Shown here piece by piece: positions 1 to 48,438 of a stretch of DNA of 64,000 nucleotides (its first letter is position 1; each line of letters starts with the position of its first letter). The translations under genes were made by a program, and so were the position numbers. This DNA comes from Takakia lepidozioides (lineage: Eukaryota > Plantae > Bryophyta). The notes under the pieces are model-generated. The model searched no databases and was not told the DNA's origin. It worked only from the letters and a program-made list of their open reading frames with translations. Location: positions 2,046,001 to 2,110,000 of the forward strand of contig CM060731.1 in NCBI GenBank assembly GCA_030704615.1, written 5' to 3'.

Positions 1-1450
1 AAGATACACAAAAATGCAGATGCGTGCCATCCCGGCACCATCTCCTTGTCCGTCTCACCATGCCACCGAGCTCCAGTGTCATCCTGTTGGCTCATGCATG
101 GATTGCAACTCAATCCATCTGCATCCCGATTGACCAAACCCGGTCGATGCACAAACTAAAAGTCATACTCCTGGAGTATGAGTGCCCACCGTGCAAGCTT
201 CCCCGTAAGCTTGTCTGACTCCATCAACCACTTGAGTGGCTGGTGATCCATGACAAGGGTGAAGAGATTGCTGTATAGATAGCACCTAAAGTGTGCCACG
301 GCCCACACTACAGCTAAGCACTCTCCCTCATATGAGCTATACTTAGCCTCTGCAGCGTTGTTTGAGCGACTAGCATAATCCACTACGAACTCTCTTCCCT
401 CATCATCCACCTGTGTGAGCACCGCTCCAAGCCCCAGCATGCTCCAATCCATATGCAGCTGAAAGGGACGCCCCCTGATAGGTCGTCTCAAGATAGGCGC
501 CGAGGTCAACCTCGCCTTGAGCTCTTGAAAAGCTCGTTCCTGCTCATCTTCCCACTGCCACTCCTGGTCCACCTTGGTCAGCTTGGTTAGAGCCTTTGCA
601 ATGGCACTAAATCCCTTGACAAACCATCTATAATAGTTTGCCAACCCCATGGAAGCTCGAGCTCGGCTCACATCCGTGGGGCGTGGAATTTGTGGAATGG
701 CCTCTACCTTAGTTTGCTGTACCCCCAATCCTCCAAAATATATCATGTGACCCAGATACTCAATCTGGTTGTGGAAAAACTTGCACTTCCCCGGATGCAA
801 CTTCAATCCGTGCACTCTCAAGCGCTCCAATACCACCTGAAGGTGTCTCTCATGCTCCTCCACCATAGCACTAAAGATGATGATGTCATCTATGTAGCAC
901 CGAGCAAAGTCCACCCCTGCTAGAATCCTATCCATGACTCTCTGAAACTCTGCAGGAGTGTTCTTAAGCCCAAATGGTAAGAACCGCCACTGATATAGGC
1001 AATCCTTGCCGTGCTCATTGATCCCCCAGAATGTCGTCTTCTGCTTGTCCGCCTCCTTGATCGGCAACTGGTGATATCCGGATTGTAAATCCAAAGTGTT
1101 AAAGACCTTAGCATGCCCGATGGCATCAAAGATCTCCTCTGGTGTTGGCATGGCATACTTATCGGACTTGGTCTAACGATTTACAGGCTGGTAATCACTG
1201 CACATACGTCTCTCCGTCCAATTGCCATAGACATCCTTCTTGGCTGGCATCACTGTGGCTGAAGCATACTCTCCACCAGAGAGCTCCACCAAACCAGCCT
1301 CCCAGAGATCTTGAGTCCTCATCTGAATCAAAGACCTCTCCATGTCACTGTATCTATAGGGTCTCCGAAATATTGGCGTATCAGTGGCCAACTCAGTACA
1401 AATCTCTTGACCCTTCAGTGCTCCCAAGTCCTTCAAACTGAAGGCAAAGC
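1..1450 (-). pseudogene. Element A reverse transcriptase + RNase H (frameshifted, with stop)
   Basis: ORFs 1173-1436 and 156-1151: PIFRRPYR, TLDLQSGYHQ, LPFGLKN, CYIDDIIIF, HMDWSMLGLGAVL, YASRSNNAAE..YSSYEGECLAVVWAV, DHQPLKWL, ARWALILQEYDF. Confidence 0.95.
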
Positions 1451-1889
1451 AATTCCTGTAAGCCCTCAGGAACCGCCGTATACGTCGTCTCTCTCTTCCG
1501 GTGACAATGGGTCCAACGTCAGGCTCCCAATTGTCCTCCGTAACTGCAACCTTAAGTCTAGTTGGCTTAGAGGTAGAGGACGCGTCCAGTGGTTGCTATG
1601 TTGCAACCTCTTGAGCAGTACTCCCTACTGCTCAGTCAATGACAATGACAAGGCCTCATCCTGCCCCATCATCTCATCCTTGAGGACTTCCTCAACCCGA
1701 GAAAAATCCCCAACCTCATCCATCACCGTCACCTTGGCTGCCAACTCCCTCTGAACCTTCCTCCCACGTGTGCCATGGATGCATGCACCCCGTGGTCCTC
1801 TCATGCTCACCCCCACTCACTACCTATACCGTCTCGGTAGGCAGAGAGACCATCGAGGGAAGTGTACTCCGCACTCTGCGTTGCTCAGC

Positions 1890-2850
1890 CATAGCCAAGC
1901 TAATAATCCAGGTCAAGCAATTGAGATCCATTGCTTGCCCCAACACCTGACGACGTGATGCCTCAGAAAGAAATGGCACCGCCATGGTACCAGTGGTAAA
2001 ATCTATTGCCCGCTCACGCTCGTCAGCATTAGGCTCCACTAACTGCTGCAACTGAGCATCCCACAGGAGGCCAGGTCCACTATCCCGGAAAGCATGCGAT
2101 CCTGGGAAGCTGAGCAGTGTAGATAATGCTGCTCGTGGTTGACCCACCTTGTTGACCACTGCCAAAGGCAAACAGTCATCGTGTCTCACACGCTGAGACT
2201 GCCTCCCTGTGTCCAAAATGCTATCCACTGTGAGGTGTGCTGCCCGCTGCACCCCATCAAATGCACGCTTGAGCAGTGCGGGTGGTATCAAGTTAGTCCA
2301 CCATAGCCGTGGACGATGAGCCCGTGACCCCACTGTAGCTGCATCTAGCAACATCGCTGACCCAAGCCATGACCGGACTTGATGCACACTGGCCATCACC
2401 CTGGCCCAAGAATCGCCCATCAGTGGCACATTCTCCAAGATGTATGTTGGAGATACAGCTTGATGAAGTTGCAAGTGGCGCAAAACCCGCACCATCTCCC
2501 AAAACAGACCCGAACTCGAGTCTCGCAATCCATTTCCATGCTCGGCTGATGAATGCCCTTGGCAGGGCCAACCTGCCACTACCAGATCAATGGAGCCAAC
2601 CCACTCCAAATCCTTCGCCCCCAGCAACAAAATGTCTGCTGGCAAGGCCTGCCGATATCCACAAACTGCAGACACAGGGCAACTCAGGGTACTGCTGCAC
2701 CAACTGAGCAACATGGCGAAGTGAAATGCGTCGTGCATTCTCATCCCTCTCCACATACAGGTAACACCAAACTCGTACACCTTCCTGTAACACAACAGCC
2801 AATCCGGTGTTGATCCCGCCAAACAAGTCCAGAAGACAAATGCCTTCATC
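1890..2850 (-). pseudogene. C5 DNA cytosine methyltransferase domain embedded in the element A polyprotein (one frameshift near 2680)
   Basis: Motif I LLDLFGGI (~2840-2810), II YLYVERD, III LPADI, IV DLVVAGWPCQGHS (catalytic PC), V GLRD..SGLF, VI YILENVP, VIII RAHRPRLWWTN, IX EPNADERERA, X VLGQAMD. All are in canonical order across ORFs 2587-2826 and 1824-3089. Confidence 0.93.
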
Positions 2851-3199
2851 CGGATACTGTCACACAATAGGTGTGGTATCCAATGGTGACAACTGAGGTG
2901 GTCCTGGTGCAATCCCCACACTCTCCTCATCTCCTGATGGTACAAAAGCCTCCACCCAGGCTTGTTGCACCCGTCGATCAGCAACCCTCTGCAAATCCTT
3001 GCTCGTGCCCCACAATGGAGTCTGAGCAACCATGGCAGGCAACTCCGCCATACCATACATGTCATCCTGCTCTCTTGGAGATGTGGCATCCTCTGAATGA
3101 GCGTTGCCCTCTAGTAACTCTCTAGGCCAAGTTACTGCAGCTGTGAATGCTGCTAGTGTCGGCATCTTGCCCCGCTGGGCAACCGCAACTCCTCCTATG

Positions 3200-3524
3200 A
3201 ACGTCACAGGGAGCTGCACACGCCGGCCCTCCCCTGACTGCCATCCAGGCCTATAGGAAGCTGACTCCTCCCAAAAATCCAGGGTGAAGCCCATGGGGTA
3301 CAACACTGCCCCACCAACCAGGACATTGTACGAGACCGCGTCTGTCACAATGGCCTTGGCTCGCATCACTGAGCCATCTGTAGGGTAATCCGATCGTAGT
3401 CTGATAACCAACTCACGCCGTGTCATGCCCCAAGCCTGCTCCAATCCTCCAAAAGACGTATGTATCTGGAAAGGACAAGGCTCCATATCCGCCTCCGTGA
3501 GGCCCAAGCCGACAATAGCAGCTC
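3200..3524 (-). pseudogene. Element A aspartic protease, C-terminal half
   Basis: AIVGLGLTEADMEPCPFQIHTS…AIVTDAVSYNVLVGGAVLYPMG (retropepsin-like C-terminal motif). The N-terminal half lies beyond B1 at ~17085-17160. Confidence 0.75.
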
Positions 3525-4707
3525 TGTTAGAGGACTGTAGGGGACTTAGACACTTATACGGGATCTGTAGGGTACCCTTAAATTTTGCACAGACTGAGAC
3601 CAACAGGAGCCTTAGGGGTGACAGCAGCGCACTGTAGAGGGGGGTTACACAGCCGTCACAGTCGTCACAGCCAGCCAACACATCCGGGTCCACAGTCCAG
3701 CCAGTCACAGTCCACACCGCCAACACGCCCGTCACAGTCGTCACAGTCCACAGCCAACACAGCACCGTCACAGTCACAGTCGTCACAGTCCACACAGCCA
3801 ACAACAGCAGCCCGTCACAGTCGTCACAGCCAAACACCAACCACAGTCACACAGCCACACAGTCCACACCCCACACAGCCCACGTGCCACACAGCCAACA
3901 CAACCAACACAGCCCGTCACAGTCGTCACAGCCAACACAGCCGACACAGCCGACACAGCCCGGCACAGCCACACAGCCAGTCACAGCCCGACACAGCCAA
4001 ACACAGTCGCACAGCCAGTCACAGCCCGTCACAGTTTCACACAGCCAGTCACAGCTTGACACAGCTGTCACGATCATAGGGAACGAAGAGTAAGACAGGG
4101 AACGACTGTGGGGAACAACACCTGCGAAGGGAACATGTTAGTTCACAGACGACGGTTAGTGAGGGAAACGGTTAGAACTGCGGATAGGAAGATAAAAGGG
4201 AAAACGGGGAATGAAGGAGGGGATTTTTATCATTCTTCAGAGGAGGACTTCTTAGTTAGGCTGGAGCGGAGATCGGAAACAAAAGATGGAGAGCACGGTG
4301 AAGGAGGAAAGAGGATTAGTAGATGCTTGTTATATGCAAAGCTGTAGTGATATTGTAGAGCAGATTAGAGACATAATGGCTTCGGCCTGATACCTGATAA
4401 ATCATAATCTGATACTTATACGATACAATCACACTGTGTAGAGAGATCTGAGTGAAGCTGTGGATTGAATGGATGAGTGAAGGAAACCGATAGATTGATG
4501 AAGCAAACTGATATTTAATTATCAATGGTAAGGTAGCTAAGATGAATGCGGAAAGGGAAACAAATAGGAAACACCCCCATGATACACTAGCTGTAGGTCA
4601 TGACTGATTGTTCTGCGCGGGCTGAGTACTTAGAGATTTCCAACTCTTCTATCTTGGAGTTTCCGCCTCGGATAGCGAAGGGATGGGTGAGTAAAAGCCG
4701 CGCGACA
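3525..4707 (+). repeat. B1 5' LTR (1183 bp)
   Basis: Starts TGTTAGAGGACTG and ends GCCGCGCGACA; near-identical to 15937-17084 outside the internal minisatellite. Confidence 0.96.
3648..4070 (+). repeat. CACAG(C/T)C-based minisatellite inside the B1 5' LTR
   Basis: Irregular 9-10-bp units such as cacagccaa, cacagtcgt, cacagccagt and cacagcccgt. Confidence 0.9.
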
Positions 4708-5295
4708 TTTGGCGACCATACTGGGGACCTGGGACATGAACAACCAGATGTGACAGGCATCTGGTGGGATCATGGTGGTTGGACCATTAAAGAATTTGAA
4801 GTGAATCAAATTCCCTGTGGAACGAAGGAAGAAAGATTGTCCAAACGATTCTTTCAAAGGTTCTTGGAATTGCCAGACGGTTGTAAAGAAAATATTCTTA
4901 AACGAGTGCATGATGCTGATCCAGAATGGGGTCTGGAGAAAGGAGTGATAAAGATTTATCAGGTAGCCTGTAGAGGAAGAGCACGTTGGTTACCAACATT
5001 GGTTTATGTGATAGCATTGCTATCCATTAAACGAGTAGAGTTTGAAGGCTGGGAAGAAAGAAAGGTGAATGTTTATACTCATATGCATGAAGAGCTTGTA
5101 CTGGTAAAGAATTGGATTCCAAAGGATATTTTGTGGATCAAACTCACACCAAGAACAGCTTTTCAGACTTGTTTGCCATATGGTTATATGGTAACGGAGA
5201 CTTCAAGTATAGCCAAGGGTGCATTGAAGCTTGAAAGAAACCCAGGCATATACGAGAGATATTACAGAAGAGAGTTTTGGTTATTGCCACATTAA
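4600..5295 (+). CDS. B1 extra 5' ORF (231 aa, unknown function) starting inside the LTR
   Basis: Intact in B1 and B2 (57181-57876). The differences I could see are 3 synonymous and 1 nonsynonymous. Confidence 0.6.
   Translation: MTDCSARAEYLEISNSSILEFPPRIAKGWVSKSRATFGDHTGDLGHEQPDVTGIWWDHGGWTIKEFEVNQIPCGTKEERLSKRFFQRFLELPDGCKENILKRVHDADPEWGLEKGVIKIYQVACRGRARWLPTLVYVIALLSIKRVEFEGWEERKVNVYTHMHEELVLVKNWIPKDILWIKLTPRTAFQTCLPYGYMVTETSSIAKGALKLERNPGIYERYYRREFWLLPH
4710..4727 (+). promoter_or_regulatory. B1 primer binding site (probably tRNA-Arg)
   Basis: TGGCGACCATACTGGGGA, 2 nt after the LTR; resembles the TGGCGACTCCACTGGGGA Arg-type PBS of Tat/Ogre elements. Confidence 0.8.
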
Positions 5296-5316
5296 AAGAA
5301 ATGAAAGACATGGGAC

Positions 5317-8300
5317 ATGAGTGATGAAAGAGAAGCTAGACGACAGAGATATTCAGCAAAAAGAGAAAGCTATCTGAAAGCTAATTATCCATATCTTTGG
5401 GAGAGAGGAATAGACATAGGGGAATCATCTGGACCTCTCACACCATCAAGATCAAAGAGTGCATCACCTATACCGGAAGAACTAGAGTTGGATGCCACTC
5501 CTTCTGTTTCTTTGCAAGAAAGATTAAGGGAATTGGTACAGGAAGAAGATCAATCACGAGGTGAAAGATCTGAGGTACATCCTTGGATAAAAGACTTGAC
5601 AGAAATCTTTGATAAGAGTTGGCATGGAACACCAAAAGCAGGAACTCCAGTTTCTGAAGCAGAAGATGAAGAAGGAGAAGAGGATGTGGCAGAGCCAACG
5701 GAGAGTTCAGACTCTCCAACACCATTACAGTTGAGTTACATGAGTGAAGAAGAAACCCAAGGGCAGAACTTGGAGGATGAAAACAGAGAGAAGAAATTAG
5801 AAGAGGAAGAATATGAAGAAGTAGACCCAACAGCTGAGGTTGAGACTACAACCAGGACATCCCAACCCGTTGGACCTGGATCAAGTGGAGCACTTGGATC
5901 ACAGGCCAACGAAGGTGTCGGCTCAGGGGGATCAGGCGGGCTGCCTGGATCTGGCTCTGGGGGGACAGGGAGTGTGGGAAGTAGTGCAACTGAAGCTGGG
6001 AATACTGTGAATATCGTGGGACCAGAAGCAAGGAGTGCTCAAGGGCCACCACTTGGTGGAAGATCCACCACAAAAACAACAGGTCCAGAAGGACCAGCAC
6101 CAGCAAGGGTGCCAGCACCTGTCAGTGGGCAGAAGGTAGGGCCACAGATGGCGTTACAACCAACACGGGCAAAACCACCCTTTCCAATATATTCAGGAAA
6201 AGGGGATCCCGATGTACACATTAGCCAATTTGAGCACATGTGTATAGTGAACAATGAGAATGGCGATGATGCCAAGATGAGACTGTTTCCTTGTTCACTT
6301 ATCAAGAAAGCAAGTGAATGGTATGCAAGATTCCCTGATAATCATTTCCTAACCTGGAATGGCTTGAATACAGCATTTCGAAATAGGTTCAGGACAAGTA
6401 AAACTGAGGATGAAGTGTATGGAAGTTTACAACAGCTGAAGCAGAAGAAGCATGAAACTGTTGAAGAGTATATGGAGAAGATGGAATTGATGATGAAAAA
6501 GCTGGCTGCAGTACCAGCGCCCGGTTTACAAAGACTTGGTTTGTGAGTGGATTAAGACCAGAGTTGCAAAAGAAAGTGGATATGTTACCCCATAACACAG
6601 TGGAGGAGGCATTTGAAACTGCGAACAGAATTGAGCAATTGGGAATGCTCAGGAGAGAGAAAAAAGAAGATGAGGACTCTGAGGATGAGTCAGATGAAGA
6701 AGAAGAGCAAGAACTAAAAAGAAAGAGTAAGAGAAAGGAGAAGTTGAAGAGGGATAACTATGAAAAAAAATTGGAAGAAATCTTGAAGAAGTATGCCACA
6801 GAGGCTGCAACACATTGGAGGAAGGGTGTATGGTGTGCAAAGTGCCAGAATGAAGGCCATACCACCACAGAATGCCACATGAAGGAGAAACACTGTACTA
6901 TCTGTAAAATGGATAACCATTCTACTGAGAATTGTTACTACAACAGAAGGACAGCTGCAAGAGAACCTAGGCAAGTAAGGGTGCATCAGGTGCAGCCCCA
7001 GCCAAGAAGAAACAATGATCAGGACCACTATGGTAGGTCTGGTGGTTATAACAATGGCATGGAAGGGAGAGGTAATTCAAGAGGGAATTACCAAGGAAAT
7101 TCCAGAGGCAACTATCAGGGTAATCCAAGGGGGAATTACCAGCCCGGGAATCAGGATTATAGAAATAATCCAAGAACAGACCAAGGGCGAGGACCCAATG
7201 GTGAAGAGCTATGTTACTATTGTAATCAGCCAGGACATCGCAAGGCAGCCTGTTCATTCTGGATAAGACACCAGAATGAGATGAGAGCTCCTGTGAATGA
7301 GGGCCCAGTGGTGGCAGCTCACATGGTTAGGCCATGTGTTGTACCAGAAGTAAGTACAATGATAGTAACAAGAAGTAAAGCCAAACTAATACCTCCAGTA
7401 GAAGAGGAAGAAGATGAGACTGGAAGTGGCAATGATATGCCTGAAGATGAAGAGACTTGGAAAGATGAGAAGGAACTGCACAAGGAAGTGGCAGATACTA
7501 TAAGGGAAATGCAAAAGAGTACTGATATTCCTGTGGCAGATTCCTCTGATTCGGATGGAGAAAAAGAAGGGAGTGAGGAAGAAAGGAAAAAAGAAGATGC
7601 AGACATGCAAAGTAATGAAGAGACTTTGGCTGCAGTAATATGTCAGACCAAAGCAGAAATTACCATTGGACAGCTATTAGCTGTGGCACCTTATTGTAGG
7701 CACAGGCTGTATCAGGCAATCAATCGAATTGCCCAAGAGACAGGAAACACAGACCTGAACAGCAAGGTGACCAGTTATAATGTGAAGCCGGAAGGGCGAG
7801 AACCAGTCATGGACTTTGATGATTCTATGCCAGTAATCCAATTGAGAATTGGAAGCACAGAACTAACTGATGTACTGATAGATGGTGGTTCTGGAGTAAA
7901 TATCATGACAGACCAATTAAGGAAGAAGCTTGGTCTAAGTAACATGAAACCAGCCCCATTTACAGTAACAATGGCAGATCAAAGAAGTGTGCAGCCATTG
8001 GGATTAATAAGAGGAGTTAAGATACAGATACAGAAAATGATCTTTATGATCACAGTAACTGTATTGAAAAATGGATGAAGTCATGGAGGCTTACTCCTTA
8101 TTATTGGGACGTCCGTGGCTGAAACAGGCCAGGGTATTCCATGACTGGAATTCTCAGTTACTAACCGTGCATAATGGGATACACGAGATACAAATTACCA
8201 CAAAGAAATCTAGTAGATTACCTGCTACAAGAAGACCTCGAGGAGTCAGAGAGTATGACTGGAGAGGAGGACTGGATGAGGAGCAGGAAGCTACCCTATT

Positions 8301-11300
8301 TGCTGCACACCCAGAGTGGGAGCAGGTTGCGGAGATGCGGCTGGAAAGCCTAAGTTGTTTGAGAGGTATCTGCTGTGGTGTAGTGACAGCAACACCAACT
8401 GAAGAGGAAACCAGCATTTACCCATCACATTTCTATGAAGAGAGAGAAGGAGAAATAGAAATCCTAGAAGAACCAGCCACTGTGAGCTTACAGGATGAAG
8501 TGGTGACTGGTTGGACAATCACAGCTGATGAGCAGGTGAGAGAAGTAAATGTGGGAACTCAGGAGGAACCGAGGATGGTGAAAGTAGGAGCTGATTTGGA
8601 GCCGGAATTCTTCGAAGAAGCTAAAAGCTTGTTCATCAAATACAGAGATGTATTTGCTTGGAGCTATGAGGATCTAAAAGGGATACCACCTGAAGTCTGT
8701 CAGCATAAGATTGAACTGGAACCAGGGTCAGTACCAATCAAGCAGGCGAGGTATAGAATGAATCCCAACTACGCACAGAAGGTTGGAGAAGAGATAAAGA
8801 AGTTGGCTGAGGCTAAGTTTATATACCCAATAGAGTATACAACTTGGTTGTCACCCATTGTTATAGTTCCCAAGAAGAATGGCAAACTAAGAGTATGTGT
8901 GAACTATAAGAAGCTGAATGCTTGTACGAAGAAAGATCCTTTCCCTTTGCCATTCACAGAAGCAGTATTAGACACTGTGGCAGGCCATGAGATGTACTCA
9001 TTCATGGATGGCTTCAGTGGTTATAATCAAGTGCAAGTGGCAGAAGAAGACCAAGGGAAAACAGCTTTCATCACAGACTGGGGGGCTTATGCATACAAAG
9101 TCATGCCCTTTGGACTTTGTAATGCACCAGCGACCTTTCAGAGAGTGATAAGTGAATCTTTTCATGAGTATCTGGATGATTTCATGCAGGTATTCTTGGA
9201 TGATTTCAGTGTGTACAGCTCTAAGAGTGAGCACTTGCATAAATTGGAGTTATGTTTGGCCAGATGCAGGATGAGAGGTCTGGGCCTGAATCCAGAGAAG
9301 TGTACTTTCTGTGTGAACTCAGGGGTGCTTCTGGGACACATTGTGTGTAAGAAGGGACTCCTTGTGGATCCCAGGAAGACAGAGTCCATTAAAGCCTCTC
9401 CACCACCAGTGAATGTTAAAAGTCTACGAAGATTCCTTGGGCAAACCAGTTATTACAGAAGATTTGTCAAAAGGTATGCACAAATAGCAGCACCATTGAG
9501 CAAGCTTCTGAAGAAAGATGCAGTGTTTGCCTGGACAGCTGAATGTCAACAGGCGTTTGAGGAACTTACACTGTCAGTAACAACTACACCTGTGCTGATT
9601 AACCCTCACTGGCATGTAGTATTTCATGTTCACTGCGATGCATCAGGAGAAGCGTTGGGTGCGGTGTTAGCCCAGAATGTTACAGGGAATATAGATTCAC
9701 CTGTGTACTATGCTAGCCGGTTGATGAACAGTGCTGAGAGGAACTATAGTACAACGGAAAGAGAAGCATTGGCAATGATTTATGCAGTCAAGAAATTCAG
9801 GCATTACCTATTGGGAAGAAAGTTTATGTTTTATGTGGATCACCAGGCTCTGATATATCTGGTGAACAAACCTTTGATAAGTGGAAGGATAGCGAGGTGG
9901 TTAATAATCTTGCATGAGTTTGAGTTCGAGGTTATTTACAAGCCTGGCCGTTTGCATCTTGTGGCAGATCATTTGTCACGACTAACAACAGGAGAGGCCG
10001 CCACAGGAGTGGACGATCAGTTACCTGATGCGAGTTTATTTGTAATGGAGGTGCAAGGAAGTGCAGATGAATGGTTAGATTGGCAGTGGCCAATCAGATA
10101 CTACCTTGCTCATGGTCAGTGCCCACCTAGTTATGGTAAGGAGCAGAGGAAGAGAATTGCTATCAAAGCTTTACCTTATACTATGGTAGGAAGCAGAATG
10201 TATAAGTTAGGACCTGATGGAGTACTAAAACGATGCTTGTACCACCATGAAGTAAATAAAGTCTTGGAGGAAGTTCATAAAGGAGTGGCTGGAGGTCATT
10301 TTGGAGAAGAGACTACCAGTAGAAAGATACTACTCGCAGGATACTGGTGGCCTACTTTGTTCAAAGATGTACACGAGTATTGTCAGAAGTGTGATGAATG
10401 TCAGAGGCTAGGACCTTTGCAGAGATCTGGAAGGATGGCCTTGCATCCTACAATGCCTACGGAACCATTTCAGAAATGGGGACTAGACTTTGTTGGACCA
10501 ATTAATCCACCATCCAAGAATACACGAAACAGGTACATAATTACAGCCACTGATTATACTACAAAGTGGGTGGAAGCTAAAGCTTTGAGGGACAACACAG
10601 CCAAGTCCACAGCAAGGTTCCTGTACGAGAACATACTTACACGATTTGGCTGTCCCTTAGAATTTATCAGTGATCAAGGAAGTCACTTCATGAATGAGAC
10701 CATTGAGTTGTTGACTAAAGAGTTTATGATTGTGCATAGAAAGAGTACAACATATTACCCACAGGGTAATGGGCAGGCAGAGGCTACCAACAAAATACTA
10801 TGTACTATCTTGGCTAAGATAGTCAATGCAAACAGAACGGATTGGGATACAAAGCTGCTGACAGCTTTATGGTCATACAGGACTTCATATAAAGTCACCA
10901 CTAAGTATACACCATTCCAATTAGTTTATGGTATGGAAGCCTTACTTCCAGTGGAATTCCTGTTACCTACCATGAGAACGGAGTGGGGAAAAAGAATGGA
11001 ATTGCAAGACTCCATCAAGGTCAGGAAACATGAATTATACCATGTGGAAGAAGTACGTGCTGATGCAGCTGATAATATGACCAGAATTCAGATGAAGCGA
11101 AAGGAACAGTTTGATGAAGGCAAGTTAAAGACTTTTAAGACGGGGGATTTGGTTCTATGGTTGCAGAAGAAAGGAAAGATTCAAGCTTCTAAGCTTAAAT
11201 CACCGTGGAAAGGACCTTATGTCATACAAAAGATGTATGATAACAACACCGCCATGTTACAAACCATTAACAAAGAAATGCTGGGAAGAGTCAATGCAAA

Positions 11301-11490
11301 TAAGTTGAAGGGGTACAGTGGTATCCATGACAAACCCCTGCAGCATGATTTGCATGTTGAACCGCAAGAGCAGTCACGGGCTGCCCAGTGTTACGAACGG
11401 AGTATGGAACACTTGTCGCTAGGCCCAGCATATATGACCAGGGCGGGCAAAACAAACGTGACACAGCAACCACAGCCCCTCACGACGTGA
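5317..11490 (+). CDS. B1 gag-pol (gag, CCHC knuckles, protease, RT, RNase H, integrase) with single-base frameshifts near 6530, 8070 and 11385
   Basis: YSGKGDPDVHISQFE gag core; CYYCNQPGHRKAAC; VLIDGGSGVN protease; FLDDFSVY RT; HCDASGEALGAVL RH; HFG…CQKCDECQR zinc finger; WGLDFVGP, ISDQGSHF, NGQAEATN integrase; WKGPY GPY/F motif. The frameshifts at 6530 and 8070 are absent in B3. Confidence 0.95.
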
Positions 11491-11670
11491 CACAGCCTAT
11501 CACAGCCCAGCAAGGCGCAACACAGCCTATCACAGCCCAGCACGGCGCAACACAGCCTATAACAACCTACCACAGCGTGTCACAGCCTATCACAGCTTAC
11601 CACAGTGCATCACAGCCTATCACAGTGTAACACAGTATGACACAGCCTGTCACAGCTCAACACAGCCTAC
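11460..11670 (+). repeat. 30-bp tandem repeat (CACAGCCTATCACAGCCC…) after the integrase core of B1
   Basis: Also present at 43080-43375 (B2) and 63870-64000 (B3) with different copy numbers. Confidence 0.9.
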
Positions 11671-12127
11671 TAAAGTTACACCATCCATAGAATCAGTGAC
11701 AAGTGGACATATAATAACTTCAGGAAAATGGATGACGGAAGAGGAAACGGAAATTACTTTAAAAATAGACACGTGGAGGTCAGGGCGCGACACACAGCAG
11801 ACAATGAAGTGCAAGGACAGGTGTCAAAAAGAAAGAAGACAAGAACGGCCGTCAAAAGGGATGAAAGCCAGGCCCATTAATGAGTACGGAAAAAGGAAAC
11901 GGAACGAACGGCAAGTACAGAAAAGCCGAATTCTTGTCACATGTGTGATCCTAGTGGACTATCCAAGAGGGAAAGTCCACTAAAGAAGATAAAATTTAAA
12001 ATCCAGTCACAGCATACAGCCAATAGAAAACCAGAGAAAGGATCAAGAAAATGGAGGGAAATTGAGCGCAAGAGGGGCGTCGTTCTGAGTAACGGGCGTC
12101 TCGACAGGACAGGCCAAATGCTATAAC

Positions 12128-15100
12128 TTGGAAACTATGGAGGAACTAACAGACTATACGCTCGCAATATTACTTACGCAGTGGCATAGACACGAAAGGA
12201 CAGAGCAGAGCTTTTCTCTTGAGCAATGCTTGCAAGCCCCGCAGGCTTACAAGAAATTACCCATAGCTTTATGCGGCAACCATACGTTTATGCTTTGTGC
12301 ACTACAGGCATTCCTGCAGTTGTTACAGCCAAAGCAGTTCTGTGAGTCTAAAATGAAGAGAGTGAGAGGAATGGAGGAAATCAGGGTGAAGAGCACCACA
12401 ATTCTGCAGAAACAAACGATGGCTACCCCACAGGCGATAAAGATACTGGAGGAGCTGAGATTGGAAGGATTGCAAAGCCTAGATTGGACACTACACCATA
12501 GACAGTACATGTTACAATTTTTGCAGAACTTTGAGCCAAGGACAGGAACAACAACGGTGAAGGGAGTTGAATTAATGATTACTCCCCTATACCTCCAGCA
12601 ATTGTTTCGATTGCCAGCAGGTCAGGTGCATGTGAGGAACACAGGGCAAGACTGCAAATAGGGGACTTATTCCAAGAAGGGAGTTTCTTTAAAACTCAGG
12701 GTTATGCTTGTACCAAAGCTGTGTACCCAGGGTTAAAAGAGATAGGCCAGGTATTGAACGTTCTGATTGCCCTGAAACAGAACCAACAATATTTGAGCAG
12801 ATCATTCACAGAGGAAATACTCAAAGGCCTGAAGGGACAAGAGGTACAATGGGCGGACGTAATGTACAACGCACTAGTAGAGAGAGGAAAAGATTACAAG
12901 GTACTACCGCAAAGTCTCCTATCATTGTGTCTGGCCCAATCATTGCTCAAATAATCCTTAATTCTGGCATACTTAATGCACAAGAAAAGAAGGAAATGGG
13001 AGTGTTTGAGCCAGAAACAACTGCAATGGAAGAGCAAGGCTCTTCACACAGTGAGGGTGGACTAGCAGCACAACCCGAGACTAAGAGGCAGAGAAGGGGA
13101 AAGATTGTAGTGGCGGATCCACTGGCTTCACGGATTCCGCATGATAATGTTTCCCAAGCTCATGGCCAGGAAGGGGCACAGCAGCACAGACAAATGCTAT
13201 TACTGGAAGCAGGACCTTCAGAGAGGGAGGAGGAAGTTACTTCTGCATCACAACCCATCACAGCCACTTGAACGACTTGTCACAAGGTCACAAGTTATCC
13301 ATGCAGCTCAACCCGAAATAATTGATTTGGAAAGTGAAGGGATAGATATTCCAACTACAGAACAGATAGTGGCAGAAATAGAGAAAGGGGACCTTCTCTA
13401 TGAATATTCTGGTCTGGTCAAGGAGACAGAAATCCCAGAGGTGCAACAGTTGCCCAAGGGAAATCCTGAGGTGCATATAATACACACACCTGTGTCGGAG
13501 GTACCACAGGCGGAAGGTCATGACACTGTAGCACCGGTGATAGATGAAGTAGTTCAGGAAGAAAATCCGGTGGGACAATGGCCTGAATGGTTAGTGAGAC
13601 ATCATACTGTTGAAGATCAGGAGGAACAGCAGCAACCTCACCATGATGACCCTCAACAGGCAATGCTGATGAGTTCCATAGGCAGGACACTTAATTTGTT
13701 GGGGACTTATGTCAAATCCCATGTTCCAATTACCCAATTGACAGCCTTGAAAGAGGAACTCAGGAAGGAGTTTGAGGCTCGACTTGCCACTGAGTGTGCA
13801 AACAAGGTCGATGAAGAGGTCACTCTCAAGATGAAGCAGGACTTGGGCAATACAGAAATGGCTTTGCAATTGGCCAAGCAACAATTGATTGAGGCAGGCC
13901 TCGCGCAAGACCAGTTGCACGAAGCACATAAGCAACAGCTATACCAAATGCAGGTGCAGCATGAAAGCAAGTTGCAAGAACTGAATGCACTACATACGGA
14001 GTTGCAGACAGTGCATAACAGGATGGCGATACAATGTGCTACATTTACAACTATGCTTGACCAATCAACAAAAGAAATAAACAGTCAAGCGGAAAAATGT
14101 ACGAAGGCAGAAGAAGAGAATGTTGAGCAAATGAAGCTCATTGTCGATATGAAGAATACAATCTGTCGCAATGAAGATACTTTCAAGCAATACAGGCAGA
14201 TGGAAGCTGATCAAGAGAAACACATCGTGGAGTTGCAACAAACCATCGTGGCCAATAGAAATGAAATCGCGGTCGGTAACAAGGCTTGGAAGGAAGCCAA
14301 TAATCTACTTGCTGCTTATGCGCAATTGGTTGAGCCACAGGCAAAGCGCATGGAGGCTTTACAACAGCAGTTGGAATTGTACAAGCTAAGAGAGGAGCAA
14401 ACTCTCAGGGGATCCACAAGCAGCTTGGTGGATAACAGCCTTATGCAGGTCTGGTTAGCACAAGGGCCAGTAGAGGGCAAAGCCCCACGGAAGCTCACCC
14501 AAAGCGAGATGAATGAGCTCAGACTGCAGGTGCAGAACATTGCCACAACTACTATAGACAATGTCTATAGTAGGATAGCAGAGTTACAAGAGGATGTAGA
14601 CGGACTCCAGACTCAAGTGCAAGACCTCACTTCAAACATCGACCAAAGAGTCTATATCCCTCAGGAACAGCTAATGGCTTCTTATTTACAAGCCAGAACT
14701 TTGGCTTTTCAGTCTTCACAGGAGGTGCAGGAGATGCCAATGATACAGGAGCCAGTACCACCACCACCACAACAGGTCAGTGTACCAGTAGCTGAACCTG
14801 TGGTTACTACAACCACACCACAGCCACCACAGCCGGAGGTATGGGGCAATGCCGCTTTTAACCCACCTAAAACTCCAGCTGCAAGGGAGTACAGCAGGGC
14901 TATGCTTATGCCCTTCAACCAAATTCCCATCATGTTGGATTTGGCTTGGAAAGAATTTAGTCCTCCGCAGTCATTCGCACATTACTACCAAATCATGCGT
15001 ATTTGGCTGCCAGTGGCAACTAGGACTAAAGTTCTTCCAAACAATCAACATATTGAAGATCATCACTTTGCACAATACTGGCACGAGGCAGGTACCATGT

Positions 15101-15906
15101 TGAGGGAATTGGTTGCTTTCCAGGTTGTACATGGACTCATTTATACCAAGACCAAGGAGATAGCAAGTATTGTCATGGGGTGCGGGCTATACTACGCTGC
15201 TTGTTTTCTGGTACGTTACCACATTGAGCAACAAAAGATGCAAACACGCTTTCAAAGTTACTCCAGTGGAGATCATTGGGTATTACCTTCGGTGCCACCT
15301 CATATGTACCTATATGACCCAAAAGTTATGATGCAAAAGGATTCTCAAATTCGTTCATGGTTTCAAGCAGCCTGCAACCATTTGTCAACACAGAAATTCA
15401 GACTTGATGACATTTTCTATAAGGGACATGTGGCGTGGAAGTACTTGCACGCTGCACCAGTAATTGATACCCCACTCACCTGGACAGACAAGGAGCTCAG
15501 TGTCTACACCAATTTTGCAGTTCAGCGGTTACACCAAGTTATAAAATGCAAACTTCCAGACATGGTAGGACAGCATTGTATGCCCCAGATGATTCCACAA
15601 AAGGTTCGAAAATTAAAACATCTGAGAGGTGATGAGGATTCTGATACAACTGTTTCTTCACAGAATTCTTTTGACATGGGAGAAGACTATGCAATTCAGA
15701 TGGCAGAAAGCGACGGGGGTCTCCTATGCCAGAAAGGTTACCTCGATATCAGCCTCCAGAGAGCCTCAACTATCCAGGTAGTGATCAACCATCTCCGTCA
15801 ACCAGAGACAGACCTCGGGCTCGTACACACAGTCCGCCACGAAACTCTCAACGTCAACAAGGTGCTCACTCACAAAGGTTTGCTACTCGGAAACAGTAAA
15901 CCGTGA
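12128..15906 (+). CDS. B1 large extra 3' ORF (~1250 aa when three frameshifts are bridged): plant-transposon-protein-like N-terminal domain plus long coiled coil
   Basis: ORFs 12128-12661, 12721-12954, 12708-13271 and 13141-15906. The first junctions are continuous in B2 (41758-42879). QFLQNF…TTVKGVELMITPLYLQQLFRLP resembles the Athila-ORF/Transposase_32 type motif. Heptad-rich Q/E/L segment ~13730-14650. Ends 15 nt before the PPT. Confidence 0.75.
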
Positions 15907-15920
15907 GGACACGGCTTTTT

Positions 15921-15933
15921 GAGGGGGAAGGGG
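15921..15933 (+). promoter_or_regulatory. B1 polypurine tract
   Basis: GAGGGGGAAGGGG, separated by TAA from the 3' LTR TG. Confidence 0.9.
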
Positions 15934-15936
15934 TAA

Positions 15937-17084
15937 TGTTAGAGGACTGTAGGGGACTTAGACACTTATACGGGATCTGTAGGGTACCCTTAAATTTTGC
16001 ACAGACTGAGACCAACAGGAGCCTTAGGGGTGACAGCAGCGCACTGTAGAGGGGGGTTACACAGCCGTCACAGTCGTCACAACCAACACAGCCGTCACAG
16101 TCCACACAGCCAACACAGCCAACACAGCCCATCACAGTCGTCACAGTCATCACAGTCCACACAGCCAACACAGCCAACACAGCCCGTCACAGTCGTCACA
16201 GTCATCACAGTCCACACAGCCAACACAGCCAACACAGCCCGTCACAGTCGTCACAGTCCACACAGCCAACACAGCCAACACAGCCCGTCACAGTCATCAC
16301 AGTCGTCACAGCCGACACAGCCGACACAGCCGACAAGCCGGGACAGCCACACAGCCAGTCACAGCCCGACACAGCCAAACACAGTCGCACAGCCAGTCAC
16401 AGCCCGTCACAGTTTCACACAGCCAGTCACAGCTTGACACAGCTGTCACGATCATAGGGAACGAAGAGTAAGACAGGGAACGACTGTGGGGAACAACACC
16501 TGCAAAGGGAACATGTTAGTTCACAGACGACGGTTAGTGAGGGAAACGGTTAGAACTGTGGATAGGAAGATAAAGGGAAAACGGGGAATGAAGGAGGGGA
16601 TTTTTATCATTCTTCAGAGGAGGACTTCTTAGTCAGGCTGGAGCGGAGATCGGAAGCAAAAGATGGAGAGCACGGTGAAGGAGGAAAGAGGATTAGTAGA
16701 TGCTTGTTATATGCAAAGCTGTAGTGATATTGTAGAGCAGATTAGAGACATAATGGCTTCGGCCTGATACCTGAGAAATCATAATCTGATACTTATACGA
16801 TACAATCACACTGTGTAGAGAGATCTGAGTGAAGCTGTGGATTGAATGGATGAGTGAAGGAAACCGATAGATTGATGAAGCAAACTGATATTTAATTATC
16901 AATGGTAAGGTAGCTAAGATGAATGCGGAAAGGGAAACAAATAGGAAACACCCCCATGATACACTAGCTGTAGGTCATGACTGATTGTTCTGCGCGGGCT
17001 GAGTACTTAGAGATTTCCAACTCTTCTATCTTGGAGTTTCCGCCTCGGATAGCGAAGGGATGGGTGAGTAAAAGCCGCGCGACA
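15937..17084 (+). repeat. B1 3' LTR (1148 bp) with internal minisatellite ~16060-16450
   Basis: TGTTAGAGG…CGCGACA followed by TSD AGCTC. Confidence 0.96.
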
Positions 17085-19308
17085 AGCTCTGCCTAACATC
17101 ATTGGCTGAGCTCCTCAGGCCAACAAGACCCGCAGTGGCCGGTACCTCTTGCCTGCCGGTCCACTCAAATAGAAAATGTCATCCTAGTTGTCTAACATGA
17201 CAACTCCAGGTGTCACCGTGGCGCGCTCAATGGCTGGCCAAGCTGGCAGCTCCACAACCTGGCAGCTGCAGCTTGCCATGGTGCCGCCGTGGCAGTCTTG
17301 ACCCTCAAATCCGAGGATCCCTCCGGCACTACACCTCCCACTATATTCTCCGCAGAAGATGAAGTAAGCTCTCACAGAGTGTAGCTGCTAGCCTGAACAC
17401 CTCAGCTGGTCTTACCCCCGGCGTCGCAATCATGGTAGCCAAGAACAACGGAGCCTGACACACAGATGTGGCCGCTCCCAGCAGCACACTAGCTGTCGTA
17501 GCCTTGGAAACACTAGGTAGTGGTGTTGCCCGTGTAGCTCTCCCCAATGGCATAATAACCTTCGCCTCGGTAACAGTCGGGCGAGAACTAGGTGCCATGG
17601 ATGGTGTCGACATTGTCTCCGCCAATGTGAATGACTGAGGAAGCCTAGCCTGACGGCTTGCCTCCCCACGCTGTGGATCCAACTCCACCTCTGCACCTCG
17701 TGGCTCAGGAACTCGTGCTGCTCCTTGAGTCACGGCTGCAGTAGACTCCACCTGCACTAGTGGTAGTGCTGCTCCGCACATGAATCCCATGCCTCCCATA
17801 TCTCCTCCCTCAGGAGCAGGAGGTGGACCATCCGGCCTTGGAGCCGGTACCACCTGAGCTGTAGCCATGGCAACGAGCCTTTGCTCTAGCTGCTGAAGCC
17901 GGTTGGCCATGCCTTGGTCAACACCCTGACCTCCGCGTCCTTGGCCATGTTGAGCTTGCCCTTGGCCTGCACCCCGTGCCTAGCCACCTCGTCCTCTCTG
18001 GGCTGCTCCACCTCGCCCCCGGCCACCATTGTTCCCTTGGAACTGGCCTGGGCGCAACTCAGGATGCAAACCATAACACTGGGCCTCTCCATGCCCGTGC
18101 TTGCCACAATGCCCACACTGCAACTGTGCAGGCTATGCATATGCCGGCCCTTTGCCTCCCTCTGGGCAATCCTTCTTGACATGGGGTCCTCCACATGTCC
18201 AACACACCACCTCCGCCCATTGTTGGCCTGCAAATGAAGGGAGAGACCCCTGCATCTGAGATCCTCTCTGTCCTTCCCTGGGCTTCACCTGGACCCCCTT
18301 GTTGCCTTGAGCACGTTGAGGTAGTGGTTGGCTAGGAGCACCACTACCCCGTGGTGTCTCATTAGCAAATCCCACCATGACCACTCGTTCCTCCACCATG
18401 TTGAGCTTTATCCGCTCTGCCAGCAAAAACACATTTGTTAAAGTGGGTTGGGCCGCTTATAGGAGAGTTGCATCCCGCACCCTTCTCCTCAGCTCCTTGT
18501 CCAATATCCCATACCAGAATTGGACTGCGTGAGCTTCCATAACCCCTTGGGTTACATTTATCAAGCGCCTCATGCGAGTGAAAGCCTCCCTCAAGCTCTC
18601 AGTAGGCTTCCGTTGGAACTCTTGCAAGCTCCGCAACTTCTCTGTCCTCACCCCTTGGTAGTTCCCTCTCAACTCTTCGAAGAACTCCACAATAGGGTTG
18701 AAGGCAGGCATGGGTACTAGTGCTGGTGCGGTAGTGGCTTGGGTGGACGTCGGAGCTACTATACCACCAGTCCCACTGCTGCTTGCTAAAGCTGCCAGTG
18801 CAGCGACAGGTGTAGCCAATGCCCCCGTGGCTCTAGTGCCCCTAGTGATGGAGACATAGTCGGGTGACCAGTACATCCTCCACTCCTCGATCTCAACCTC
18901 ATGCCCCCGCCTGAACTCATGGTAATCATCCATAGGCGGCCCCTCAAGGTGCTGAAATAGCCCCTTCTATGCCATGAAAGGCATAAATAGTTGTGGATTG
19001 CGCATTTGCTGCAAATCACACCAACTATCAAACTCTTGGATAAAATCATCCAACTCGATGGTGCCCACCGCCCCAGAGTACCTTCGTGGCCCCTTGGTAG
19101 CTCCATACATCTCCTCCATTGTGTCCCACAACAATGGCAAGGAAACAATTTGCACCGCCGGTGTGAGTCCTCCTGATTCACAATCCGAATCAGAACCTTC
19201 CGTAGAAGACACAGGAGCTGAAGGTGGCCTAAACCGCACACCTCGTCTCGTGTACCCACTAGTATCGCTAGTGCTCGAACCGGCACTGTCCCCAGCAACT
19301 AGTGGCAC
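17085..19308 (-). pseudogene. Element A gag and N-terminal half of the protease (multiple stops)
   Basis: RYSGAVGTIELDDFIQEFDSW gag core; LQEFQRKPTESLREAFTRM; knuckles CWTCGGPHVKKDC and CGHCGKHGHGEAQC; degenerate protease site RVLLA*GAQP (~17110-17130, expected LLDSGAQ). Confidence 0.85.
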
Positions 19309-20781
19309 CTCCGTGTTGACAAACTGTCACTCAACCGGTCATGAACAAGTCCCTAACCCCCTCTCCACAAGGTAACCGGGTAGAGAACCTGTTGCGGCTT
19401 ATGGTTTGGAATACTAGGTTCCTAACATAGCCTACACCTGTACCTGCATCCACCGCAAGCACTCCTATGGTTGGCTGGTCATCACCTCCAACCTCACCAT
19501 AGGAGAAACAATGATGGTCTGACTGGTCATCATGCCAGCCTCACCATCGATAGTATGCTCTAGGACTGGCCGGTGATGAAATCCGGACCAATCACCTATA
19601 AAAACAAGCGCCCACACAAAACTAACATGGCGCACGGTCAAGCATGCAGGTATGGAGGGGATCCAAACACAAGAAATCAGAACGACAACTCCCCCACACC
19701 AAAAACAACTCCACGGTGTTGCTCCTGCAAGGACACCCCAGCCCAAACCCGGACTGACTCTTGCCTCCACCTACGGAAAGGTCTCGGCCTAATGAGATGG
19801 TGGAAAACTACGAGGAAGAGAAGCTAAAGCAATGCCTAACCCCAGCATGCCCTCATCCCAACACTCTTCCTCTCCTCTCTTCCCTCACTTGCATGACCAT
19901 GGGAATATCATGAAGATACTCCTCAAACCGCCCTCCACGAGCGTCAAAATTCGGCCTTCAAGACGAGGTTTACTATTTCATGAGCAGAAACCATGAGCCA
20001 TGAGCCATGAGCCGCATGAGCGGTGAGCCGAAGTCTAAGACACGCGGATTTCATGAGCCTCCTCCAAATTTGGAAATGCGGCAGATTAAACAAGTATTAA
20101 AATAATAGTTTTTTATTTGACCTTGCCATTTTTGGAAGTTCCAGATCCTGTAATGCGGCGAAGATATGTCGTCAGTAACAAGTCCGCTCATGGTTTTTTA
20201 AATCCGCTCATGGAAATGAGTGATCGTGCAACGAGAAATCCAGTATACCACGCAAAAGGACGTCGCATACTGGCCTGTATAGAGTATTCCGCGGTTTTAC
20301 ATGCCTTAACATTGGAATGAAGCTGACCCTTTTGCCGCGATTGAACCAATAGAGTCTGCACAATTCTGTCATCTTCGGGTATTCGCCGGGAAAGGCTTGC
20401 GACTCAACTAGGAAATGCGGTGCCGCATTAGGGTTCGCACGTGCGAAATTTCTAGGCGGTTTGGTGTTGGCGAAGGCCGCATCTACCAGTACCTACGATG
20501 TTACTTGGAAATGCGGCACCGCATTTCCTTGCCGGGGGTCGAATGAGGAAAGCAAAGTTTGGGAGAGCAAAAAAACAGGAACCCTCCAACACACAAAAAT
20601 ACATGCACGTGGAAACACGACTGAATGACATAGTATTATCGACGTTCGAGCAAAACAGGTTACTGGTAGGCAAGACATAAGTCGGACCTTTCTGTGGCCA
20701 GAGTCAGAGCTACTTGCAGCAGTACAGTTCTACTATCCGAAAAGGATGGGCGTACCATTGTGTTGGGACCGCAAGCCAAGC

Positions 20782-23700: not shown

Positions 23701-24206
23701 CCATTGGTCCCTCACCATTGTTTGTGTCCTTGTAGGAGCGGTGCTTGGATTCCGACACGGACATGCCGAACACGAATATGGCAGAATCAGTGCACTCCTC
23801 CTGGCGAGCGTCTTCTGCCGCACATCTGGTGGACGTAGTGACGGCCACAACGGAGGACATCGACAGAGCAATCATGCAGCAAGCCACGTACTACAAGTTC
23901 CTGAGCGGGAAACAATGGGGCTTTGGGCCGGACAGGGAGGAATTGTTGGTACGAACAGCTTTGAGGTCGAAGAATCCACTGAAATGGGTGACCGCAACCT
24001 CCGTCGTTACCTAGCACGACAATGGTCTCGTCAACCTGTCCAGGAACATCCTTCCTTTCTTCTTCCAAATAAACTGTGCCCAGTTTGAGCTTGAATTTGG
24101 AACAAATGTAAGTTTCAGTCACTCTGCAAAGTCCTCCCTCGTTTGGGATCCAGGCTCTCCCAAGTTGCGGAGGACAGCAAACTATACCGTAGGAATTCGG
24201 AGCCAT
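20782..24206 (-). pseudogene. D1 MULE-like transposase (N-terminal Cys/His zinc domain, DDE core, C-terminal SWIM), disrupted by an internal inversion at 21776-23992
   Basis: N-term MAPNSYG… on minus (24206-23993). Core on plus: CAHCKEPPTC…HVGVHSHP, WVMFDH, FMA(D/N)NAQANWAAV, FHWMQSL, TNMAESVHS. SWIM CNCTDF…CPCKHL on minus. Confidence 0.88.
23653..23735 (+). other. 83-bp GT-AG intron in the D transposase
   Basis: GAG|GTATGA…TTGTAG|GAG joins QYMRE to ERCLDSDTDMPNTNMAES in frame. The same intron is in D2 (32757-32839), and the same donor position is in D3 (GAG|GTGAGT at 53544). Confidence 0.85.
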
Positions 24207-37639: not shown

Positions 37640-37981
37640 AAAAGCAAATGCGGCGCCGCATTTCCATTAAGTACCATCCCGAAGCTACACATACCGTAGT
37701 TGTTGGACGAAAATGCGGCACCGCATTTCCATTCCACCTTCACATACCTTAGTTGTTGAACGGAAATGCGGTGCCGCATTTCAGTTCCGATGGTTCACGA
37801 TTTTCAGTGAGAACGGAAATGCGGTATGGCATTTCCGTTCTGGAGAGTATGAAGGTCTCCCCGGGACGGAAATGCGGTGCCGCATTTCCGTTCCGTTCTG
37901 GAATGTCGGAAGGTGCGACTCGGACGGAAATGCGGTGCCGCATTTCAGTTCCGATGGTTCACGATTTTCAGTCAGAACGGA
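37640..37981. repeat. Continuation of the D1 palindrome array (inverted)
   Basis: AAATGCGG cores at 37646, 37711, 37764, 37817, 37870 and 37928, plus a half-site at 37981; spacers are reverse complements of those at 24700-25313. Confidence 0.9.
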
Positions 37982-41781: not shown

Positions 41782-41785
41782 CAAC

Positions 41786-42879: not shown

Positions 42880-42897
42880 CCCTTTTGACGGCCGTTC

Positions 42898-47650: not shown

Positions 47651-47683
<33 letters not shown>

Positions 47684-48025: not shown

Positions 48026-48061
<36 letters not shown>

Positions 48062-48403: not shown

Positions 48404-48438
<35 letters not shown>

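Follow-up and report, generated by a model that had tools for sequence, protein, structure and literature searches.

A dead Ty3/Gypsy retrotransposon, here called element A, lies on the minus strand of the window (the whole 64,000-nucleotide stretch of Takakia lepidozioides DNA analysed). It is a copy of a multi-copy bryophyte Gag-PR-DNMT3 family in which a probably leaky stop would lead to a Gag-like excess of the DNA methyltransferase (DNMT), to its packaging and, likely, to methylation of the cDNA.

A DNMT3-type methyltransferase domain in element A

The minus-strand frame at 1824-3110 matches PF00145 in a Pfam search (E=1.3e-9; score 38.4 bits, cut-off 22). The motif scan places motif I (LLDLFGG) at 2815-2835, motif II (YVERD) at 2743-2757, motif IV (GWPCQG) at 2556-2573, motif VI (ILENV) at 2427-2441, motif VIII (RPRLWWT) at 2295-2315 and motif X (LGQAMD) at 1926-1943, all on the minus strand. 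Motifs I, IV (PC), VI (ENV), VIII (RxR) and X of the C5 methyltransferases stand in canonical, unrearranged order without introns, and all 18 of the 18 checked catalytic and SAM-binding positions are present in the window copy. The earlier note, which had reported a full ordered motif set on one intronless strand between protease and reverse transcriptase (RT) and had proposed the PF00145 search, was right on both counts, every motif that it named being present. Its feature, set at 1824..3089, keeps the PF00145 match but not the extent: the domain covers about 1900-2860 (annotated as 1900..2862), and the upper part of the frame is out-of-frame filler. The single in-frame TGA at ~2860 that it placed between DNMT and protease is indeed found at 2860-2862, upstream of motif I, but a linker of about 150 codons also lies between motif I and the C-terminal motif of the protease (3301-3324), and motifs I-II are one frame away from motifs IV-X owing to a frameshift near 2680. 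Since relatives carry a sense codon there, the stop at 2860-2862 and the frameshift near 2680 are lesions of the window copy. Stops and frameshifts occur throughout element A, which is a pseudogene, as had been proposed.

In a comparison of the window fragment with the PDB, DNMT3B and DNMT3A rank first (E=7e-6). The profile of 38 family domains ranks DNMT3A (E=7.5e-21) ahead of DRM (7e-11), DNMT2 (5e-6) and HhaI (2.5e-5); this ranking rules out a bacterial or DNMT2-type enzyme and, together with the motif order, which is unrearranged in element A but rearranged in DRM, also a DRM-type enzyme. The structure was predicted for the intact DNMT domain of the relative L008, not for the broken window copy (pLDDT 85.8, pTM 0.88), and the top Foldseek match of this model is the DNMT3A-DNA complex 6f57 with CpG DNA (E=3.4e-19, TM 0.72/0.82). 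The comparison with DNMT3, DRM and bacterial enzymes that had been suggested beforehand therefore places DNMT3 closest, both by the family profile and by Foldseek of the L008 model. Judged from its sequence and from the modelled fold of a relative, the domain is of DNMT3 type, and methyl transfer by it is predicted. In decayed copies, the catalytic Pro-Cys, the Glu-Asn-Val and the SAM-binding residues are kept above the median column conservation (top residue counts: Cys 69, Glu 74, Asn 76). The Arg pair of motif VIII is less kept (47 and 59), and we read its substitutions as typical of CpG decay.

Element A is interrupted by a younger retrotransposon

Element A follows the Ty3/Gypsy order gag-PR-RT-RH-INT with a DDE integrase, gag to RNase H (RH) being present in the window and the integrase being known from relatives only. 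Its 5' leader (19120..19963, minus strand) is cut at 19964 by another repeat, and a terminal repeat was neither recognisable there nor found elsewhere within the 64-kb window. Gag, with two zinc-knuckle-like motifs, and a degenerate catalytic half of the protease occupy 17085..19119 (minus strand; tblastn and motifs) and contain six stops or frameshifts. This gag region is 49-50% identical to Marchantia ORF1 proteins over residues 1-557 and 587-654 by tblastn; its Retrotrans_gag match (E=0.002) lies under the Pfam cut-off. Next, at 2863..3524 (minus strand), come the protease's C-terminal half and the linker between protease and DNMT, with 48% identity to residues 647-934 of Marchantia Mp_4g09160. 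Downstream of the DNMT domain, the poorly conserved C-terminal tail of ORF1 (1599..1899, minus strand) bears, in the window copy, a stop at 1824-1826 and compensating frameshifts. Overall, the Marchantia ORF1 proteins align to the window in four pieces, at 19119-17371, 17282-17082, 3528-2680 and 2678-1761. The junction stop TAG and the following CAA CCA lie at 1590..1598 (minus strand) in a TMV-like type I CAR-YYA context. The start of ORF2 (1..1595, minus strand) encodes RT and RNase H (~1595-99; Pfam span 156-1172; RVT_1 E=2e-29, RT_RNaseH E=1.7e-34) with two stops, and the integrase, PHD finger and 3' end would lie beyond the window.

Element B, a younger, DNMT-less Ty3/Gypsy element recognised by its LTRs, target duplication and Pfam domains, occupies 3525..17084 on the plus strand inside the element A protease, directly after the protease catalytic motif. 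Its LTRs (TG...CA; 3525-4707 and 15937-17084, plus strand) are flanked by a 5-bp target duplication and show 634 matches and 5 mismatches over the 639 sites compared in the non-repetitive LTR part. The Pfam search finds gag, protease, RT, RH and integrase in element B, and no PF00145. Because this younger element inserted into the protease, the gag of element A now lies 13.5 kb away from the DNMT. The placement of the protease beside the DNMT in the earlier note accordingly holds for the C-terminal half, whereas the degenerate catalytic half and gag are displaced to 17085-19119.

Several other repeats share the window. The element B family (seen at 4597-5295, 12089-15906, 41758-45804 and 54132-64000) has at least three further copies there and shows strong CpG depletion. 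Its gag is preceded by an ORF of 232 codons, and its integrase is followed by one of 931 codons that has no Pfam match above the cut-off. A repeated element at 19964-24000, 30505-34150 and 51850-53900 carries a SWIM-finger-like ORF (weak Pfam match, E=0.04) and a 531-codon ORF without a Pfam match; it is possibly a MULE-like DNA transposon, and its copies break both the leader of element A and the gag of a third Ty3/Gypsy element. The latter (26921-30640, minus strand; the broken gag belongs to 26900-30640) is only slightly depleted in CpG (0.89) and carries a Tf2-like SH3 domain. Arrays of a 53-bp satellite lie at 24700-25313, 37700-37981 and 47300-51200, with higher-order units of 159, 375, 96 and 285 bp.

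The methyltransferase is a family trait under purifying selection

The DNMT search returned 56 longer homologues and 214 of similar length (120 listed). Among the matches listed, relatives occur in Calypogeia fissa (71% identity), Marchantia polymorpha (at most 67% over the full query) and Klebsormidium nitens (43%), as well as in M. paleacea, Riccia sorocarpa, Sphagnum troendelagicum and S. fallax. The best 120 of 1,089 matches in the RT-RH search have Calypogeia (80%) and Marchantia (76%) on top and add Closterium and proteins labelled Tetstr1, which we take to be from Tetraselmis. Among the matches listed, the named relatives closest to element A are liverworts, and no vascular plant is named in either search. 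From these matches alone, the most likely host would be a bryophyte, such as a liverwort. One cluster member labelled as a cyanobacterial protein is taken as a binning artefact, and a viral-contig match was set aside as weak, partial and devoid of retroelement domains. The family profile collects 479 clusters at E<=1e-30. The P0002 cluster includes members on the Marchantia V (male) chromosome (Mp_Vg00370, Mp_Vg00540, Mp_Vg00690 and Mp_Vg00480), whose annotations say no more than hypothetical or CCHC protein.

A relative is encoded by 177 of the 299 candidate stretches from metagenome contigs. The order gag-PR-DNMT-RT-RH-INT is seen in the 80 loci kept wherever the contig reaches; these loci were chosen by DNMT presence and cannot show DNMT-less members. 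Run X1, possibly the source sample, yielded 27,000 contigs, in all four likeness classes and over all 30 bins of 900-3524 including the DNMT, a figure that stands for many DNMT-bearing copies and not for copy number. Marchantia has uninterrupted ORF1 gene models, about 1,280 aa long, which end ~98 residues past motif X.

In comparisons between families, dS was computable for six pairs, which give DNMT dN/dS values of 0.06-0.18, and a further three pairs are saturated; the unsaturated pair L054/L058 has 0.12 at a dS of 0.27. For such pairs, the protease gives 0.04-0.25 and RT 0.03-0.06. Inside a large decayed family, five close pairs give DNMT dN/dS of 0.44-0.86, and pN/pS is 0.98 for singleton changes against 0.56 for shared ones. 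These within-family values are as expected of decay after insertion and are not themselves support for selection. The DNMT is a family trait under purifying selection.

Trees of the two domains were compared for 73 elements that carry both. The RT tree repeats 19 of the 24 well-supported splits of the DNMT tree, and the DNMT tree repeats 23 of the 27 well-supported RT splits, judged by FastTree local supports. The RT tree unites in a single clade (support 0.999) those elements of Tetraselmis, Klebsormidium, Closterium and bryophytes whose DNMT lies upstream of RT; in a wider RT tree, the node joining all DNMT-bearing elements has a support of only 0.78. From these trees, which contain no host DNMT3 outgroup, a single DNMT3 capture is favoured over independent captures. 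A related group carries the DNMT between RNase H and integrase (P0049, P0053, P0244, P0251, P0273, P0280 and many of P0292-P0433), and RT-RH-DNMT-INT-PHD is the commonest multi-domain layout, found in 27 of 150 representatives. Both trees, RT (support 0.999) and DNMT (0.938), separate this group from the elements with an upstream DNMT, so the DNMT must have moved at least once.

On these points the earlier note fared well. It had taken the methyltransferase for a family feature, and dozens of loci from several genera keep the domain at the same place; it had named a dN/dS of about 1 as telling against its view, and the between-family values lie at 0.06-0.18. The extension to land plants that it foresaw is borne out by the relatives in Calypogeia, Marchantia, Riccia and Sphagnum, and in the trees that it suggested, RT and DNMT group with Klebsormidium elements and largely agree with each other.

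Relatives have split-repeat ends

The relatives do not have paired LTRs. Their left end is a repeat A (~339 bp, TG...CA), part of which recurs in the sequence that follows this left copy. At the other end, a polypurine tract is followed by a repeat B (115 bp) or by the arrangement B-NN-A-B. The first B is present in 22 loci; A comes after it in 8 of them and not in the other 14, one of which has no room on its contig. Both ends are available in eight loci, of which seven have a 4-bp target duplication and the eighth is cut by a contig end; two of the seven are the same insertion, leaving six independent cases. Target duplications of 4 bp accompany both end forms, A...B-NN-A-B and A...B (L076:3674-12879, L053, L066, L021, L046 and L057). 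The B-NN-A junction is retained in the divergent L054 and L056. This internal junction looks like a circle junction in its sequence, and the A...B form could have arisen by recombination between two B copies.

Neither a tRNA-type (TGG-type) primer binding site nor a self-complementary primer was found after repeat A in the relatives, which do not show the two identical LTRs and tRNA primer binding site of canonical LTR elements. PAT, TOC1 and Ngaro elements have split direct repeats of the form A ... B-A-B and a tyrosine recombinase. The relatives resemble them in their A ... B-A-B ends but differ in having a DDE integrase (rve), TG...CA ends and 4-bp target duplications. The window copy, whose own ends are absent from the window, is filed as Ty3/Gypsy by its domains and not as a canonical LTR element.

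A candidate readthrough stop closes ORF1

In the bryophyte families, the DNMT closes ORF1 (Gag-PR-DNMT), and RT-RH-integrase-PHD follows in frame after a conserved stop. In the intact example L054, ORF1 (976-5082) and ORF2 (5086-8226) are separated by this single stop, the next codon starting ORF2. Consistent with this arrangement, bryophyte-type ORF1 proteins in the databases end 80-160 residues past motif X, and ORF2 proteins (RT-RH-INT-PHD) are ~1,030-1,100 aa long. The earlier note had placed the methyltransferase in a polyprotein, which stands in that it is part of the Gag-PR-DNMT ORF1; the single gag-PR-DNMT-RT-RH-INT frame that it envisaged does not, given the conserved stop before RT. 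The TAG at 1596-1598 of the window copy is this conserved junction stop of the family, and a decay lesion is ruled out.

The frame is held across the junction. Among 60 junctions with both sides, the DNMT-RT distance is divisible by three in 41, the other 19 being indel-bearing or deleted, and the family-specific distances (351, 393, 468 and 477 nt) are each a multiple of three. With the RT N-terminus as anchor, TAG or TAA followed by CAR-YY is found at 58 of the 65 junctions (57 by script, plus L056 from a separate analysis, the script having given a later spurious match there). Of the seven junctions without the motif, four belong to a divergent group that has decayed, two to copies with point mutations, and one has a deletion. 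An exact UAG-CAR-YYA is present in five sequences from four families, namely the window copy (1598-1590, TAG CAA CCA), L008, L054, L056 and L058; by comparison, CAR-YYA follows any stop triplet at a background of 67 in 31,310. The codons after the stop in these sequences read Gln-Pro, Gln-Leu or Gln-Ser, and the second of them ends in YYA across the four families, whose synonymous sites are near saturation, despite the Pro/Leu/Ser change. No variant falls on the stop or the next six bases among 40 of the 229 variant places of run X1.

A large family accounts for 53 of the 58 motif junctions. It has CAA-CCC or a close variant, lacking the last A of CAR-YYA (5 of 6 positions), and an AUG three codons past the stop, which weakens the case for this family, where reinitiation or weak readthrough may operate. 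The first in-frame Met past the stop is at codon 85 in the window copy and codon 48 in L008, and there is none in the first 110 codons of L054; the first Met of these three ORF2s lies inside conserved RT sequence. In nine junctions, no consistent RNA structure was found 3' of the stop (z -0.2 to -2.5).

UAG-CAR-YYA is the type I (TMV) readthrough motif (PMC3542737), and the TMV context gives 6-10% readthrough in stable transgenic plants (PMC2754532). By its context, the junction stop of element A and its family is likely a type I readthrough site, readthrough itself being predicted. A caution comes from Tca2, in which a stop with a convincing-looking context misled workers (PMC2194720).

Composition and decay of the window copy

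By its CpG observed/expected ratio, element A (0.50 and 0.44) is less depleted than its DNMT-less neighbour element B (0.32 and 0.19). Composition gives no sign of self-methylation, as this ratio did not separate element A from its DNMT-less neighbours in the window. Compared with the run X1 copies over 900-3524, the window copy shows C-to-T type changes at 76 places and the reverse at 25, indicating cytosine loss. Among 18 near-fixed places picked from 40 of the 229 variant places, nine are at CG, though CG makes up 13% of cytosines. We read this cytosine loss as decay after CG methylation by the host.

Discussion

In the mechanism that we propose, most ribosomes would end after Gag-PR-DNMT, and a few would read through to make RT and integrase, likely at roughly 5-10% by analogy with the TMV signal in plants. 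If this holds, a Gag-like excess of DNMT over RT and integrase is a quantitative prediction. Because it is fused to Gag, the DNMT would be packaged with Gag in excess over RT, the protease would free it, and it would be the first enzyme to meet the cDNA; we regard such co-packaging through Gag fusion, with protease release, as likely. DNMT3 catalytic domains work as oligomers on DNA in the structures matched, and high local amounts would suit them. Several algal relatives lack a junction stop, and since in many of them the DNMT either shares one frame with RT or is placed between RNase H and the integrase, Gag-level DNMT is not required for function. The integrase PHD finger is most like those of CHD4, PHF12, PHF21A and KDM5, several of which are of a type that reads unmethylated H3K4, and the chances that it guides integration into H3K4-unmethylated chromatin are about even. 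We lean slightly towards methylation of the cDNA inside the particle, by which new copies would arrive pre-marked and be tolerated by the host. Such copies would resemble host DNA or stay quiet enough for tolerance, an idea already proposed for retrotransposon Dnmt3 (PMC5890265). In the same work, a DIRS-borne Dnmt3 methylates CG in yeast, and the Klebsormidium Dnmt3, the closest tested relative, gave no methylation there, a result that its authors call inconclusive (PMC5890265).

The same anatomy might be read without readthrough, ORF2 being reached by Ogre-like splicing, an internal promoter or reinitiation. Precedents exist in Ogre, in which some transcripts lose an intron that lies between Gag-PR and RT (PMC6317226), and in the junction promoter of Tca2 (PMC2194720); the junction stop also ends in AG, the large family has a T-rich run before it and an AUG after it, and some Marchantia and Sphagnum gene models bridge DNMT to RT across the stop. 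These models, however, skip the stop at differing places, as ab initio predictions would. The frame held over variable junction lengths, the YYA kept while its residue changes, and the missing early AUG in the window copy, L008 and L054 all argue against splicing or reinitiation, which makes this reading unlikely. At the other end of the scale, a one-off capture of a host DNMT3 transcript by the window copy, or a chance neighbourhood, was rejected as vanishingly improbable in view of the constant position of the domain across dozens of loci from several genera, the purifying selection and the splits shared by the two trees (19/24 and 23/27).

Two further alternatives concern what the DNMT does. 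An active enzyme may act in the nucleus, on insertion sites, other copies or competing elements, and not on particle cDNA: Gag-level synthesis would leave ample free enzyme, the PHD finger on the integrase implies that the element engages chromatin, and host DNMT3s catalyse bryophyte CHH methylation (PMC8566409). We consider this rather unlikely, as selection on a retrotransposon should favour benefits in cis, and ORF1 contains no chromatin-reading partner domain. Retention of the domain for nucleic-acid binding or RNA methylation is improbable; a motif X of GQAM, where GNS or GNA is usual, would fit such a role. So would the inactivity of the Klebsormidium domain in yeast (PMC5890265), but catalytic and SAM-binding residues are conserved above the median, and sequence and fold are nearer to DNMT3 than to DNMT2. 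Methylation of cDNA by a packaged DNMT made at Gag level is, with moderate confidence, the reading that we prefer.

Earlier surveys of readthrough in plant retroelements exist. The closest described system is KnitGypsy-Dnmt3 of Klebsormidium nitens, likewise a Ty3/Gypsy element with an intronless, unrearranged Dnmt3 under purifying selection (PMC5890265). Its protein KFL_009030040 is 43% identical in the DNMT and 46% in RT-RH and has the same PR-DNMT-RT order; the legend of Fig. 4c describes 'DIRS-like' repeats (PMC5890265), where the relatives here have split direct repeats. It differs in that its DNMT is described inside the Pol ORF (PMC5890265), whereas in the bryophyte families the DNMT ends the Gag-PR ORF1 before the conserved stop. 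The bryophyte families are further set apart from KnitGypsy-Dnmt3 as described by their land-plant hosts and by the PHD finger on the integrase. By sequence, element A belongs with the KnitGypsy-Dnmt3 clade as a variant form with a stop between DNMT and RT, and the Closterium and Tetraselmis proteins in this clade argue against an origin in the K. nitens lineage. SymbioDIRS-Dnmt3 is also a Dnmt3 carried by a retrotransposon, and de novo methylation of CG has been shown for it alone among such enzymes; its retrotransposon order and host are not those of element A (PMC5890265).

An in-frame stop between two ORFs and a CAR-YYA hexamer recall TMV, MuLV gag-pol, SIRE1 and Tca2 (PMC3542737, PMC2754532, PMC2194720), but the bryophyte junction stop comes after protease and methyltransferase, not after gag as in the MuLV/SIRE1/Tca2-type systems, and has no consistent 3' structure. 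Ogre/Tat and other REXdb lineages likewise have Gag-PR followed by RT-RH-INT in two ORFs, with an intron of ~274 bp at the Ogre junction (PMC6317226) in place of the conserved in-frame stop of the bryophyte families. REXdb required paired LTRs, and its main text contains neither a methyltransferase nor a PHD finger (PMC6317226); the bryophyte DNMT family was likely missed by REXdb because of the need for paired LTRs.

No report of land-plant DNMT-Gypsy elements or of the junction readthrough site was found in the openly accessible literature. By term search, the main text of PMC5890265 mentions neither Marchantia, liverwort, PHD nor readthrough, and its three supplementary files mention neither Marchantia nor Sphagnum. 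A 2025 paper still describes retrotransposon DNMTs as from 'streptophytes and dinoflagellates' (PMC12344493); one of its supplementary text files has no matches, and its figures and trees may include bryophyte sequences. Neither the elements nor the site is described in the accessible text of PMC5009743, PMC3441728, PMC11982613, PMC6453930, PMC6673714, PMC11244446, PMC8566409, PMC12885004 or 10.1101/363937. The Klebsormidium kind is known already; what appears to be new against these texts is the land-plant range, the conserved readthrough-type stop joining the enzyme to Gag, and the split-repeat ends.

A wider and more tentative picture, which we hold as possible and rather doubtful as a whole, is that of a Ty3/Gypsy lineage, so far unclassified, whose age equals that of the green plants and whose elements have split repeats, a DNMT3 and a PHD integrase but no tRNA primer site. 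In bryophytes, its readthrough switch would give ~10x DNMT over RT, every new copy would integrate methylated, and leaked enzyme would add to de novo methylation by the host. A pipeline that looks for paired LTRs would overlook the lineage on account of its split-repeat ends, and methyltransferases are overcounted in bryophyte annotations because the DNMTs of the lineage are included. The question of why a retrotransposon would carry the very enzyme that silences it dates from 2018, and experiments are difficult in the hosts reported so far. The family is present in Marchantia polymorpha, a genetic model whose methylation mutants show derepression of many TEs (10.1101/363937) and in which several uninterrupted Gag-PR-DNMT frames are annotated, so that the activity, timing and target of the enzyme are testable.
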